Source: a virus
DNA: 64,000 bases
Reading direction: 5' to 3' (one strand)
IMG/VR virus record: IMGVR_UViG_3300027801_002517
Location: 1-64,000 of that record
The notes below the pieces were generated by a model that was given only the letters and a program-made list of their open reading frames with translations, had not been told where the DNA came from and ran no database searches. Shown in pieces: positions 1 through 32,849 of this stretch (the stretch's first letter is position 1; each line of letters opens with the position of its first letter). The position numbers were made by a program, and so were the translations under genes.

Positions 1-190
1 CTGGTAATTCTACGACCAGTGGAACGCTTAACACCAGTGGAAATGTATTCTCCAACAGCGATACCTACACCGCTGGTAATTCTACGACCAGTGGAACGCT
101 TAATACCAGTGGAAATGTATTCTCCAATAGCGATACCTATACCGTTGGTAATGCTACAACCAGTGGTATGTTTAATGCAAGTGGAAACTC
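1..190 (+). repeat. 72-bp tandem repeat (24-aa unit), 2 near-identical copies plus a diverged third
   Basis: ctggtaattctacgaccagtggaacgcttaa... starts at 1 and at 73, with a diverged copy from 145. Confidence 0.95.
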
Positions 191-2282
191 CACTTTTGAT
201 GGTAATATTACAGCTCAAAAGCAACTGTTTGTTACTGGAGATTCATACTTTATTGGTGCCACTACTACAAGTGGTAATCTAAATATCAGTGGTGTATCCA
301 TCTTTAATGAAGATGCATACTTTACAAGTAATGCTCCAGTTGTTATGAGTGGAACACTTGGCGTTTCCGGTGCGGCACAATTTGATAGTACTGTCGATGC
401 TTCTGGGGATGTCACACTTGGCAATGATCTTTGGGTAACTAATAATGCTACTGTTAGTGGTACATTAGGAGTCTCTGGTATTGTATCGTTTGATGATACA
501 TTACACTTTAGGAATAACGATATTAGAATTGGTGTTAATGCTGGATTAAATTATAGCGAACCAAGCGGAGGGGAAGGTTATCGGCCTATTAATATTGGTC
601 AGCTAGCTGGGCATTTGGGCAGTGGAAATAGTACAGTTAATGTTGGTAGCCAAGCTGGTACACAGGCGTCTGGTGAAGCCATGACCAATGTTGGTGTACG
701 AGCGGGTTATAGATCTATTGACTCTCTTCGCCTTTCGAACTATGGTAGTCATGCTGGTGCTCTGTCTTCCGGGTGTTGGTATTCTATCATGGGAGGTTAT
801 ACAGCCGGGTATGCTGCAGAGAATTGTGATTTTAGTACTTTTCTTGGTCCGTACGCTGGCTACTATGCCGGTGGATCAGGATTAGGGCAAGGTCTAAGTT
901 ACACACTGGCTGTTGGTAGTGGAGCTGGCTATCGAGCAAAAGGTAAGCACAATGTTATGGTTGGTGGAGATTGTGGTGCTTACTCTAGTGGCGTTGATAA
1001 TATCTTTATTGGTGTACGGGCGGGTTTTCACACCTCTGGTAATAACAATTTAGAGATTTCGACTTGTTGTGATACACTTTTACCTAGTGGCACTGTCACT
1101 TCTTATAAATTAAATATAAGTGAAACTATCGTTGGTGACATATCAACAAAACGCTTGGCTATTGGGAATGTAGATGCTACAAATCTTTCACCTAATGCTA
1201 CTTTAGAAATAGTCCCAAGTGGTACAGACGTGGCCTTGCTCGCTAGTGGTGATGTACATATTAGTGGTAATGTGTTGGTCGATGGTAACTTTACTTTGTT
1301 AAAATTCACCGATAACCATATTAGAATCGGCCAAGATGCTGGATCTAATTATACAGCAGTTACGTCTGTCTACCCACCTATTAATATTGGTAAGCGGGCT
1401 GGGTATTTTGGTAGTGGAATTAGTACAGTTAATGTTGGCAGCGAAGCTGGCACACAGGCGTCTGGTGAAGCCATGACCAATGTTGGTGTACGAGCGGGCT
1501 ATCGCTCTATTGACTCTCTTCGCCTTTCGACATATGGTAGTCATGCTGGTGCTCTGTCTTCTGGATGTACATATTCTCTTATGGGAGGCTACACAGCCGG
1601 ATATGCCTCAGAAAATTGTGATTTTAGTACTTTTCTTGGTCCATACGCCGGAAGTTATGCTGGTGGATCAGGATTAGGGCAAGGCTTAAGTTATACACTG
1701 GCTGTTGGTAGTGGAGCTGGCTATCGAGCAAAAGGTAAGCACAATGTTATGGTTGGTGGAGATTGTGGTGCCTTTTCCAGTGGTGTTGATAATATCTTCA
1801 TTGGTGTACGGGCGGGATATCATACCTCGGGTAATAACAATTTAGAGATTTCAACTTGTTGCGATACACTTATGCCTAGTGGAACCGTTACTTCTTATAA
1901 ATTAAATATAAGTGAAACTATCGTTGGTGACATATCAACAAAACGCTTGGCGATTGGTAATGTTAATGCTAGTCACCTTTCTCCAAATGCTACCTTAGAA
2001 GTCGTTCCAAATGGTGCAGATGTAGCGTTACTTGCTAGTGGTGATATAAGTGTTAGTGGCACAGCAACGCTCCACGGGGCATTAGAAACCTATAGTGGTG
2101 GATTACCAGTTAACACAATTATTAATTCTAGTGGTTTACTGACCATTCCGATATTCGCTTCCAAATCTGCAGTGGAAGCTGCCTTACCCGCTGCCCAGCA
2201 TAATAAGGGCGTAATAGCGGTTGGCGGTAACTACTTTATGGTATGTAATGGGACTGAATGGTTAGATGATGGTTTTAATTAA
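3..2282 (+). CDS. Tail fibre / virion fibre protein, 5'-truncated by the window edge
   Basis: The frame of ORF 168..2282 is open back to nt 3 (GNSTTSGTLNTSGNVFSNSDTYTA...). It has YadA-head-like G-x-x-A-G ~14-aa repeats, the LAIGNV...PNATLEI fibre motif and a C-terminal CNGTEW motif. Confidence 0.8.
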   Translation, partial: GNSTTSGTLNTSGNVFSNSDTYTAGNSTTSGTLNTSGNVFSNSDTYTVGNATTSGMFNASGNSTFDGNITAQKQLFVTGDSYFIGATTTSGNLNISGVSIFNEDAYFTSNAPVVMSGTLGVSGAAQFDSTVDASGDVTLGNDLWVTNNATVSGTLGVSGIVSFDDTLHFRNNDIRIGVNAGLNYSEPSGGEGYRPINIGQLAGHLGSGNSTVNVGSQAGTQASGEAMTNVGVRAGYRSIDSLRLSNYGSHAGALSSGCWYSIMGGYTAGYAAENCDFSTFLGPYAGYYAGGSGLGQGLSYTLAVGSGAGYRAKGKHNVMVGGDCGAYSSGVDNIFIGVRAGFHTSGNNNLEISTCCDTLLPSGTVTSYKLNISETIVGDISTKRLAIGNVDATNLSPNATLEIVPSGTDVALLASGDVHISGNVLVDGNFTLLKFTDNHIRIGQDAGSNYTAVTSVYPPINIGKRAGYFGSGISTVNVGSEAGTQASGEAMTNVGVRAGYRSIDSLRLSTYGSHAGALSSGCTYSLMGGYTAGYASENCDFSTFLGPYAGSYAGGSGLGQGLSYTLAVGSGAGYRAKGKHNVMVGGDCGAFSSGVDNIFIGVRAGYHTSGNNNLEISTCCDTLMPSGTVTSYKLNISETIVGDISTKRLAIGNVNASHLSPNATLEVVPNGADVALLASGDISVSGTATLHGALETYSGGLPVNTIINSSGLLTIPIFASKSAVEAALPAAQHNKGVIAVGGNYFMVCNGTEWLDDGFN
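513..2060 (+). repeat. Intragenic direct duplication, offset 792 bp (264 aa): ~513-1268 and ~1311-2060
   Basis: cctattaatattggt at 585 and 1377; gctagtggtgat at 1242 and 2034; identical runs at 903-979/1695-1771 and 1098-1159/1890-1951. Confidence 0.97.
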
Positions 2283-30729: not shown

Positions 30730-32448
30730 ATGCCTATTAGAGTAAGATACAAAAACGATCCTGGTCAAGAGTGTACTGTTAGACCAACTCCATTGGTTAA
30801 TATTGGTACTCAAATCCTGAAGAATGGTGCTGGAGAGGCATTTGGTGTTACCTATAGTATCACTTTAACGGGCACATTATTGGCTGATCAAGGCACTCCT
30901 TATGCTATAGAACATGGTGGTATTACAGCTTTACGTCATCCATCTACTGATAAATATGCATTTCATGAAACAGCACCATCAGCTTTTACTGGTCCATACG
31001 GAGCATTTGATAGTGTGCTTAGTCATACTGGTTTAAATAGACCTCCCAAACAACAAATTGAACCTAATTTAGCTGCTACAGCACTTATCACAAAACAGAG
31101 AGCATTACGTGCATTATTTGCTCAAGATGGGCAAAGAGTAGAAATCACTGATTTTAATTATGATAATCCGGCTGTTATATGTTATCCAAGATTAGTAGAT
31201 ATTCAATTTTCGGAAGGTATTTGGGTTGATAAATGTGATTTTACAATAACTCTTGAGGCCGATACATTACTTCATGGAGACAAAGTTGACAATGAAGGAA
31301 CCTTTATTATTCCTAATAATGGAGAAACTCAAGAGAATACAACAGAAACAGCATTGTTAGGTTCTTTAAGTGGTGCATTTATTAATGATTACTCTGAAGA
31401 TTGGTCTATTGAAGTTGATGAATCTACTGGGGAAAGTCCCGATCTTCCATTTTCATATCGAATCACTCATAGTTTAAATGCCACTGGTAAAACACATTAT
31501 ACACCAGGAGAAGAAAGATTAGTAGCTTGGGAGCAAGCTCGAAAATTTGTAACCGATAGATTATCTGATGATGTTACTGACTATCCTAATATTATGGGTC
31601 AAATTGGTAGCGGTACTATTAATTTAGTAGATAGCTTTGGTGGATTTAGTCATGTTAGAAATGAGTCTATAGGTCAATCCGCTGGTACATATACTGTTAC
31701 AGAAACTTGGCTGCTCGCAAGTGGAACTGCTTATGAGAATTATTCTTCATCAGTTTCTTCTGATACTTCATCTGCTTTTGTCGGTGTGAATATAGATGGA
31801 ACTATTAAAGGTTTAAGTCAAATATCTCCAAGTGGACATGGCTCTGAGGATAAACCATCAGCATTTGATAATGCGATGTCTAAATATATTGCTGTTAGTA
31901 ATAGTGGTCAGTTTGGTTTAATTAGTGATATTTATAAACGTGCAAATAATCTTGTTGCTGTAGAGCTTAATTCTCAACCATTAAGCATATCGGTTGGTAC
32001 TAATGATTATTTAGGAGAAATAACTTATTCTACACAATTCGATAATAGACCAAGTAATATCATCTCTGGTGTTTTAACTGAAAGTATATCTGTAAACGAT
32101 ACTTATCCTGGTGATGTTTTTGCCATCATTCCTGTTCTGGGTAGAAAAACTGGTCCAGTATTACAATATATCGGCGGGAGAACTGAATACACAAGAGATC
32201 TTTCAATTAATCTTTTAATGGATTATACAAAGATTCCTTATGGTAGTGGTAGAAATCCACTGTTACTCAAGAAACCAAGTGTCATTGAGCCATCTGCCAC
32301 ACAGATAGGTAATTTAATTAAAGAACTGTCTCCTCAAAATGAGCCTGGAATTAGAAAGTATTTCGTTAATCCTCCGTCAGAAAGTTGGGAACCAAAAACT
32401 GGATCATATTCTTTCAATCTTACTTGGACATATGAGCTTGATAAATGA
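30730..32448 (+). CDS. Putative tail-tip / distal-tail-like structural protein
   Basis: Beta-rich; YSITLTGTL and C-terminal SESWEPKTGSYSFNLTWTYE tube-like strands; position in the tail-tip region. Confidence 0.5.
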   Translation: MPIRVRYKNDPGQECTVRPTPLVNIGTQILKNGAGEAFGVTYSITLTGTLLADQGTPYAIEHGGITALRHPSTDKYAFHETAPSAFTGPYGAFDSVLSHTGLNRPPKQQIEPNLAATALITKQRALRALFAQDGQRVEITDFNYDNPAVICYPRLVDIQFSEGIWVDKCDFTITLEADTLLHGDKVDNEGTFIIPNNGETQENTTETALLGSLSGAFINDYSEDWSIEVDESTGESPDLPFSYRITHSLNATGKTHYTPGEERLVAWEQARKFVTDRLSDDVTDYPNIMGQIGSGTINLVDSFGGFSHVRNESIGQSAGTYTVTETWLLASGTAYENYSSSVSSDTSSAFVGVNIDGTIKGLSQISPSGHGSEDKPSAFDNAMSKYIAVSNSGQFGLISDIYKRANNLVAVELNSQPLSISVGTNDYLGEITYSTQFDNRPSNIISGVLTESISVNDTYPGDVFAIIPVLGRKTGPVLQYIGGRTEYTRDLSINLLMDYTKIPYGSGRNPLLLKKPSVIEPSATQIGNLIKELSPQNEPGIRKYFVNPPSESWEPKTGSYSFNLTWTYELDK

Positions 32449-32849
32449 CAAATGAACCTTTAACAGATGAACAAAAAGTTTTGGGTTCTGGACAGGTTTT
32501 GCCCTCTGGAGAATCCAACTTTTATGATTATTCCCAAGACCATTCTTACAATGATGGTTCTGGTATTAATGTCAATTTTCCAAGTCCAAGTAATTTTATA
32601 GATGCTTCAGGTACAATTAGGACATATGCTCCTAGTGGAAATGTTATAGAGACTTCCGGTATTTTTGCTGCTAATGAATTGAAGACATCTTTTTCTAATT
32701 CTATGGATGCGGCATTATCAGGTATCACAGACTTTACTATTTTTAATGATTATATCCATCATACTACAGGTGTAGATAGTGTATCTATACAGATACCATA
32801 TCTTTCAGATTATACAATATCTAGCGGTTTTAATCCATACGGAATTTAA
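32445..32849 (+). CDS. Small SG-rich virion protein
   Basis: ATGA-coupled to the previous gene; 8 of 12 Gly are preceded by Ser. Confidence 0.75.
   Translation: MTNEPLTDEQKVLGSGQVLPSGESNFYDYSQDHSYNDGSGINVNFPSPSNFIDASGTIRTYAPSGNVIETSGIFAANELKTSFSNSMDAALSGITDFTIFNDYIHHTTGVDSVSIQIPYLSDYTISSGFNPYGI

Follow-up and report, generated by a model that had tools for sequence, protein, structure and literature searches.

Ser-Gly excess in the outer virion proteins of an uncultured marine phage clade and its possible origin as a structural turn motif

Background

The first 64,000 nucleotides of the IMG/VR virus record IMGVR_UViG_3300027801_002517 (the window in what follows) come from an uncultured marine phage that is represented by one contig of 157,369 bp with a GC content of 36.5%. 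An earlier note, made from the letters of the window, pointed out that the dipeptide Ser-Gly (SG) recurs in several of its virion proteins, and proposed that SG is a sequon at which exposed serines are O-glycosylated by the enzymes of a neighbouring glycan gene cluster, giving the particle a glycan shield. The locus thus raises the question of whether the SG excess is real and, if it is, whether the serines are sugar acceptors or are kept for another reason. The virion module lies on the plus strand and runs from about 129 kb over the contig end up to 42.3 kb, and next to it is a block of sugar genes on the minus strand. Beyond the window are the genes of the terminase, of a cement protein, of a head-fibre protein of the Gp80 type and of more large fibres; positions outside the window are given below as genome coordinates.

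Open reading frames (ORFs) were called from ATG to stop, and the expected number of SG was calculated within each protein as nS x nG / L and checked with shuffled sequences; ratios of observed to expected counts are abbreviated as O/E. For repeat masking, every repeated segment was removed in windows of 40 residues. An ORF was regarded as fibre-like when it had at least 300 residues and at least 33% Ser, Gly, Thr and Asn. Phages T4, lambda and T5 and 160 random IMG/VR loci served as baselines, and relatives were compared as complete or near-complete genomes (G001, G006, G007 and G017), of which the 154-kb genome G001 is syntenic with the present phage.

Reality and direction of the Ser-Gly excess

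In the 36 ORFs (22,320 residues) of the virion module, SG occurs 353 times against an expectation of 196 (O/E 1.80, z 11.2), which makes it by far the strongest outlier among all 400 dipeptides. The reversed dipeptide Gly-Ser (GS) is close to expectation in the same module (about 1.1-1.2), and the O/E of SG in the remaining 134 ORFs of the genome is 1.06. The hand counts of the earlier note were all reproduced. The serines of SG are encoded by AGT in 40% and by TCT in 40% of the cases, and the pentamers AGTGG and TCTGG were found 141, 13 and 14 times and 142, 5 and 14 times, respectively, in the three frames. Since both families of Ser codons are used and the pentamers are enriched in frame only, the bias acts at the protein level, as had been argued from the joint use of TCN and AGY codons, and a DNA-level motif is ruled out as its cause.

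The possibility that the whole pattern merely reflects amino-acid composition, internal repeats or a motif in the DNA retains practically no weight. The raw counts are indeed inflated by the internal duplication of a 704-residue fibre and by the tandem repeats of a 975-residue fibre, but the expectations were computed per protein with shuffles, and after repeat masking the virion set still has 262 SG against 150.9 (O/E 1.74, z 9.0), which rules out repeats as the only cause. Small proteins without repeats show a three- to four-fold excess, the two Ser codon families are equally represented, and the relatives show the same pattern. The SG excess is real, under protein-level selection, directional (SG far above GS) and limited to a subset of the virion proteins.

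Choice and conservation of the residue preceding Gly

The combined O/E of Ser, Thr, Asn or Asp followed by Gly is 1.22 in this phage and 1.23 in the random set. In the fibre-like proteins of this phage, SG stands at 2.03, Thr-Gly (TG) at 0.86 and Asn-Gly (NG) at 0.70. Because the combined figure equals the baseline while TG and NG are depleted, Ser replaces Thr and Asn at pre-Gly sites of ordinary number. The flanks of SG are hydrophobic at positions -3, +2 and +3, and Lys, Arg, Glu and Asp occur from -3 to +3 at 0.56-0.74 of their background, also when repeats are masked; the leftover TG, NG and Asp-Gly (DG) pairs do not have this hydrophobic, charge-poor context. The proteoglycan xylosylation sequon, to which SG had been likened in the earlier note, has the dipeptide itself in common with the sites of this phage, but its acidic flanks are absent here, where charged residues are depleted, and no xylosyltransferase family was detected in this phage. 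The resemblance is probably superficial.

When the virion proteins were compared with those of G001, Ser was conserved at 60% of the positions before Gly and at 35% of those elsewhere (P = 2e-13). In the non-structural proteins, the gain in conservation of the pre-Gly Ser is smaller and Thr has it too. In the 154-residue head-fibre protein (genome 136346-136810), five of the six SG sites are occupied by Ser in 84-100% of 120 homologs. The tail tube family (134 representatives with 32-66% identity) behaves differently in position, as one of the ten SG positions is conserved, and the O/E of SG nevertheless remains between 1.55 and 1.71 at every distance. In this family, NG has an O/E of 0.51-0.72 in 133 of the 134 representatives, at nearly all distances, compared with 1.13 in random phage proteins.

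Distribution among the virion proteins

The virion genes of this section lie on the plus strand. The 704-residue fibre (168-2282) contains 32 SG against 12.4 expected (shuffle z 6.2) and 12 GS, with SG[DNT][VL]..SG repeats in its N-terminal part. Some 230 residues of this fibre are duplicated almost perfectly within it (residues ~130-360 and ~395-625), which supplies about half of its SG; the masked count is 16 against 5.9. A weak alignment pairs residues 345-399 with the baseplate protein of Tuc2009 (5e7t), and one SG is common to both; the fibre also gave a weak Bactofilin-like match in Pfam; a sequence search of the PDB with this and the 975-residue fibre returned weak matches only.

The 5382-residue giant tail protein (14581-30729) has 96 SG against 47.9 (z 7.5); in this protein, as in the fibre, SG exceeds the shuffled expectation, a comparison that the earlier note had proposed. 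The giant protein has no SG in residues 1-600, where 4.0 are expected; its richest part (18661-24000) has 51 SG and 13 GS against 16.6 expected, in non-repetitive contexts. Pfam recognised RCC1, cadherin-like, Big_9 and FG-GAP modules in the giant protein and no family in the richest part except FG-GAP toward its end, and a LamG fold, which the earlier note had listed among the folds with the bias, was not found in this protein by Pfam. In each of the seven relatives examined, the ortholog of the giant protein is rich in SG (61-96 against 27-35 expected). An apparently low SG content of the tail loci of G014 and G015 proved to be an artefact of the genes covered by the 20-kb loci; the giant proteins of these two have 61 against 27 and 76 against 32.

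The 134-residue protein (32445-32849) has eight SG against 1.8 (z 5.2) with 12 Gly in total; its 'PSGE' and 'ESGIF' are near-invariant across 20 homologs, the remaining SG sites are variable, and its AlphaFold model, with a predicted local distance difference test (pLDDT) of 42, was unusable. The 120-residue protein (14207-14569), for which neither Pfam nor PHROG gave a match, has five SG against 1.7, all of them in residues 17-46. The 572-residue tail protein (30730-32448) has seven SG against 4.7, and all seven are conserved in G001.

In the 383-residue tail tube (4779-5930), the excess is modest and the sites are dispersed (10 SG against 5.3; z 2.3, Poisson P = 0.04). The AlphaFold model of this protein (pLDDT 87, predicted template modelling score 0.87) was matched by Foldseek to the tube proteins of T5, SH-Ab15497 and P74-26 (8xan, E = 3e-11; T5 tube 9iny, 4e-10; P74-26, 1e-8), so that the prediction confirmed the earlier assignment as a tail tube, with a modelled fold of the T5 pb6-like tandem-domain type. 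In the model, coil holds seven of the ten SG serines, but Gly as a whole is 83% in coil. Since SG simply follows Gly, the mapping onto secondary structure is uninformative; the one SG that is conserved family-wide, SG141, is located within a core strand.

The other large proteins do not share the excess. The 1942-residue tape measure protein (8374-14202; Pfam PhageMin_Tail, 1e-24) is SG-neutral (19 against 16.5), and the 1619-residue (32861-37720) and 1260-residue (37735-41517) tail proteins are SG-depleted (5 against 10.2 and 4 against 9.7); together with a 414-residue protein they have 10 SG against 24.2 (P = 0.001). The orthologs of the 1619-residue protein have 9 SG against 7.8 (G001), 5 against 9.8 (G006), 3 against 9.4 (G007), 11 against 9.9 (G014) and 3 against 8.3 (G017), and the ortholog of G015 (19 against 10.5) is the sole raised one. 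The major capsid protein (genome 135221-136228) has two SG against 2.2 and the portal none against 2.6. In nearly all relatives, too, the capsid protein, the portal, the tape measure protein and the two large tail proteins are without an SG excess, and the 1619- and 1260-residue proteins are depleted in several of them. A glycan shield over the particle, as the earlier note imagined it, fits poorly with these values. The note had also called SG rare in the minus-strand enzymes; with 22 SG against 25.3, those of the window are, however, at expectation. The 1619- and 1260-residue proteins, the opposite of their SG-rich neighbours, gave no match in Pfam or PHROG and could be receptor-binding parts.

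Outside the window, the 975-residue fibre (genome 147661-150588) is the SG-richest fibre of the phage, with 52 SG that come mostly from tandem repeats. Its unit of about 15 residues (..NSGVAVSGWA..T.I.; in the sequence, SGVAISGWA..NSGVAVSGWA) alternates with Asn/Thr-rich, heptad-like stretches, an arrangement that recalls the stalks of trimeric autotransporter adhesins (weak match to UspA1, E = 0.2).

Comparison with other phages

The O/E of SG is 1.17 in random phage ORFs and 1.41 in random fibre-like ORFs, in which GS stands at 1.09 and none of the proteins reaches z 3. It is 1.62 in the virion proteins of lambda, whose structural region lists no glycosyltransferase, 1.22 in T5, and 1.11 in the virion and 0.96 in the long fibres of T4. 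Phage fibre-like proteins thus have a directional SG surplus in general, which in part also accounts for the excess of this phage: beta-rich fibres and adhesin-like proteins place a polar residue and then Gly at their strand boundaries, and SG exceeds GS in the random fibre-like proteins as well. Unlike T4, T5, lambda and the random sample, however, the present phage uses Ser almost exclusively, conserves Ser specifically and reaches a 2-3 fold excess with z up to 11. In the fibre-like proteins, the O/E is 2.03 (z 11.6) in this phage and 1.76-2.49 in three relatives; over the whole virion, the relatives G001, G006, G007 and G017 are equal or higher (1.85-2.09), and the bias is present in every relative of the clade that was checked.

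A further group of relatives (G011, G013 and G016), whose capsid proteins are 51-65% identical and which have no giant protein, is at the baseline level (1.15-1.35). In one of them, a 540-residue fibre-like protein (G013:86944-88566, minus strand) has 45 TG against an expectation of 14.3, with the tetrapeptide TG[DN][VL] repeated in long runs. These runs read as a Thr-written counterpart of the SG[DNT][VL] repeats of the fibre.

Among isolated phages, no near relative was found by tblastn and megablast against 50,697 phage records; in these records the terminase matched those of Microcystis phage MaeS and of phages of Bacillus and other Firmicutes at 22-29%. The capsid protein weakly matched Bacillus phage G, and ten virion proteins had no match in PHROGs. 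A related capsid protein is, however, present in at least 437 IMG/VR loci, Tara samples among them, the best 80 being 83-99% identical. The lineage is abundant in metagenomes though it has no near isolate.

Relation of the bias to the sugar genes

The earlier note had tied SG to the glycan cluster next to the virion genes. A large cluster of about 25 sugar genes does adjoin them on the minus strand, but the bias does not follow its content. The nonulosonic-acid cassette of the cluster is missing in G001, G006 and G007, in which the bias is equal or stronger, and the SG bias is independent of this cassette. The proposed co-occurrence also failed from the other side, as the SG-baseline relatives (G011, G013 and G016) carry an epimerase and a GT2 glycosyltransferase too; most biased and baseline-level genomes have the epimerase and GT2 Pfam families (11 and 14 of 15 genomes, respectively). 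Another GT2 gene, which lies in the virion module (genome 146620-147648), is absent from the biased genomes G017-G019 and shows no correlation.

One gene of the cluster has a different distribution. The gene at 61523-62392 (minus strand) encodes a 289-residue candidate GT-B glycosyltransferase, for which an Atlas search pointed to Glyco_trans_1_2 (0.92, a lead only) and Pfam gave no match; each of the 11 SG-biased genomes tested has the gene, and the four baseline-level relatives lack it. This association is one phylogenetic contrast and not independent evidence.

Interpretation

Any reading of the locus has to account for what was observed: the excess and its direction, the independence of codon and of cassette, the flanking context, the conservation and the spread over the clade. 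We favour, with a probability of roughly 55%, the reading that Ser-Gly is a clade-specific structural turn motif of the beta-rich outer virion proteins, that is, the fibres, the giant tail protein, the tube, the head-fibre protein and several small proteins. Ser would fill the position ahead of a Gly kink, turn or bulge at a strand boundary, a position that other phages fill about equally with Ser, Thr, Asn and Asp. The number of polar-then-Gly sites would then be ordinary and the choice of the residue alone unusual, Ser being subsequently kept by purifying selection; the constraint would be conformational rather than a chemical modification. The small Ser hydroxyl could cap the backbone where the beta-branched Thr or the bigger Asn and Asp fit worse, and the adjoining glycan cluster would have another target, or one without an SG mark.

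This preference is based on the total of polar sites before Gly, which is ordinary, and on the hydrophobic, charge-poor flanks, which fit a strand boundary and not a hydrophilic loop. Much of the signal resides in fibre repeats (SG[DNT][VL] and the ~15-residue unit), a Thr-written version of the repeat seems to exist in G013, and one SG of the fibre is common to the baseplate protein of the lactococcal phage Tuc2009, albeit in a weak alignment. The SG-poor capsid indicates that the bias follows protein identity rather than exposure. The generic SG background in random fibre-like ORFs, lambda and T5, the independence of the sugar-gene content, and the tube SG, which are placed where Gly generally is, with the family-wide SG141 in a core strand, point in the same direction. 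If the serines are structural only, they amount to a lineage-wide 'dialect' of writing turns in virion proteins, which would aid in recognising the outer virion proteins of a very common group of uncultured marine phages.

Several observations weigh against the structural turn motif. The SG excess in the fibre-like proteins of four genomes tops every measured baseline, and Ser is not interchangeable with Thr or Asn at these sites, as the depletion of TG (0.86) and NG (0.70) and the conservation of Ser only indicate. In the comparison with G001, Thr, Asn, Asp and Ala gain no conservation before Gly, although simple turn-capping should tolerate Thr, Asn and Asp more readily. At the SG sites of the head-fibre protein, its distant homolog GP4 gp80, whose structure is solved (8jou), has NN, TG and LS in a weak alignment, so that the fold itself seems not to require Ser. 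The SG density of the tube family, kept despite positional turnover, would be as expected of a selected sequon, and a structural cause for the avoidance of Thr and Asn remains putative.

These points lend some substance to O-glycosylation, which we regard as a possible but tentative alternative. Soluble O-glycosyltransferases that are encoded by the phage and specific to Ser would use the SG serines at strand-turn boundaries as acceptors, modifying the virion proteins in the cytoplasm during or after folding. The sequon would be structural, as it is for the bacterial autotransporter heptosyltransferases; conserved core enzymes would start the glycan, and a variable cassette, which here adds a nonulosonic acid as the cap, would diversify it. 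The size of the SG excess, the conservation gain of Ser only and the persistence of SG density in the tube family are in its favour, as are the roughly 8-10 transferase-like genes among the sugar genes, with neither an export nor an initiating family among the Pfam matches, the GT2 gene that immediately precedes the gene of the SG-richest fibre in the virion module, the distribution of the candidate GT-B gene in the biased genomes, and the lack of a ThyA-type hydroxymethylase that a DNA-sugar route would use. There is also a bacterial precedent: in the beta-helical TibA, TibC attaches heptose to Ser but not to Thr, one of the sites being Ser313 in 'NSGG' (PMC4358343). TibC and AAH, which act on TibA and AIDA-I, are soluble cytoplasmic transferases that modify many serines of a repetitive beta-helical surface protein, and the 'NSGG' site has hydrophobic alternating flanks similar to the SG contexts of this phage. 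The acceptors of that system are serines in short loops between beta-strands, to which the flanks and the Ser-only conservation of the present sites would correspond, whereas the share of SG in coil in the tube model is that of Gly in general. Unlike in that system, Pfam scans of all 28 minus-strand ORFs of the window recognised no GT9/heptosyltransferase or BAHT-like enzyme and no ADP-heptose pathway, and the targets here would be many unrelated virion proteins instead of one adhesin.

Modification of the serines is hypothetical, and a generic SG excess is also found in phages without such clusters. The unchanged total of polar-then-Gly sites, a capsid without SG excess although it is the largest exposed surface, three large SG-depleted tail proteins, a nonulosonic cassette and a virion-module GT2 that do not track the bias, sugar clusters in the baseline-level relatives, and a gene association that reduces to a single phylogenetic contrast all argue against O-glycosylation. 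Mycobacteriophages O-glycosylate their own virions with phage-encoded glycosyltransferases, which act on Ser/Thr-rich C-terminal tracts of the capsid and tube. The present phage likewise encodes glycosyltransferases (GT2 at 59264-60133 and in the virion module, GT29-like, GT47-like and GT-A-type), but its capsid is without SG excess, its tube sites (10 against 5.3) are dispersed, its candidate sites lie in structured regions, and its set of sugar genes is far larger. A search of the literature on phage virion glycosylation with nonulosonic acids found nothing relevant. It is doubtful that the clade decorates its outer virion proteins with glycans of its own making through a structural Ser-Gly sequon that soluble Ser-specific transferases read; in such a system, a conserved core including the product of 61523-62392, and possibly that of 62389-63138, would be combined with exchangeable cassettes, here ending in a nonulosonic acid, that vary the coat as O-antigen loci vary serotypes. 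The structural and glycosylation readings are compatible, as the enzymes could recognise the turn as such. If the serines are sugar acceptors, SG would be the first O-glycosylation sequon of a phage particle to be defined by sequence and would explain the large sugar clusters without recognisable export genes in many marine phages.

The glycans of the cluster may instead go onto the phage DNA, by post-replicative sugar hypermodification of cytosine, or onto a host molecule, and be unrelated to SG, which we consider rather unlikely. Glycosyltransferase clusters for the hypermodification of 5-hydroxymethylcytosine are widespread and can adjoin structural genes, and such modification requires a methylase, a 5-methylpyrimidine dioxygenase and transferases (bioRxiv 10.1101/2023.12.21.572611). 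Like the present cluster, those clusters are large, occur in uncultured phages and give no transporter or flippase matches in Pfam, and a cassette content that differs among relatives in which the SG bias does not differ would suit such a role. The phage does encode a C5 cytosine methylase (genome 108124-109200) beside a GmrSD-like nuclease and a 243-residue ORF, but the methylase, the only component found, is about 45 kb away from the cluster; a ThyA-type hydroxymethylase was not found, and a search for a Tet/JBP-type dioxygenase gave no match, although its control was also silent. We know of no precedent for nonulosonic acid on DNA.

Very unlikely as the main cause is the chemical durability of long-lived extracellular particles, by which the fastest-deamidating dipeptide, Asn-Gly, would be avoided with Ser as its usual replacement before Gly. 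The O/E of NG in virion proteins is 0.70-0.78 over four genomes, and the values of the tube family (0.51-0.72 in 133 of 134 representatives) compare with 1.13 in random proteins and 1.19-1.62 in T5 and lambda. However, deamidation does not explain the depletion of TG (0.49-0.94), the isomerisation-prone DG is not depleted (about 1.0-1.2), and the shortfall of about 34 NG is far below the surplus of about 157 SG. Avoidance of Asn-Gly may contribute but cannot explain the deficit of Thr.

Gene content of the glycan cluster

The cluster of glycan and nucleotide-sugar genes (42398-63896, minus strand) was delimited by Pfam and by synteny with G001, G006 and G007. Its Pfam families comprise an epimerase/dehydratase, short-chain dehydrogenases/reductases, a methyltransferase, three aminotransferases, a cytidylyltransferase, two NeuB, a GT29-like protein, a UDP-sugar dehydrogenase, two DegT, a GT47-like protein and GT2; no transporter, flippase or initiating-transferase family was among the Pfam matches. 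Several ORFs of about 250 residues have no family assignment, at least one of them being a viral GT-A. This is the 253-residue GT-A-type glycosyltransferase with a DxD-like 'SDD' (60765-61526, minus strand; Atlas 0.99 to viral glycosyltransferase clusters), which is conserved in G001 and G006 and has a paralog at 54360-55112. The GT47/RXYLT1-like matches at 57714-58568 are weak and under the curated cut-off. By eye only, 58561-59286 has an 'LGLGD' motif, and 62389-63138, present in 13 of 15 genomes, is nucleotidyltransferase-like.

The nonulosonic-acid cassette (45654-57727, minus strand, 12 kb) consists of two NeuB, a CMP-transferase, two DegT and the GT29-like gene, and among the genomes compared it is peculiar to this phage. 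BLAST against six relatives gave no orthologs of it except distant matches (23-36%) of the cytidylyltransferase and DegT in four; NeuB and DegT are missing in G001-G005 and NeuB in G006-G010. In G001, its place is taken by GT47-like, FUT8/NodZ-like and GT2-methyltransferase genes. The flanks of the cluster (42398-45630 and 60765-63896) are conserved and the part between them (45654-60755) is exchanged between close relatives, like a hot spot of sugar-gene exchange. In the 234-residue protein of the cassette (51671-52375, minus strand), residues 12-63 match the GT29 sialyltransferase family (E = 2e-7), which is mainly eukaryotic; its gene lies beside the two NeuB and the cytidylyltransferase.

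Outside the window, the GT2 gene of the virion module (plus strand; Pfam 4.7e-11) is located between the gene of a 539-residue protein and that of the 975-residue fibre. Its orthologs in G001, G006 and G020 have 53-55% identity, and a shorter form occurs elsewhere in G007, G014, G015 and G021. At 106085-109948 of the genome (minus strand), the C5 methylase is flanked by a nuclease-like protein with GmrSD_N and HNH, a 5-formyl-tetrahydrofolate cyclo-ligase and the 243-residue ORF; these genes may have a role in modifying DNA or in anti-defence.

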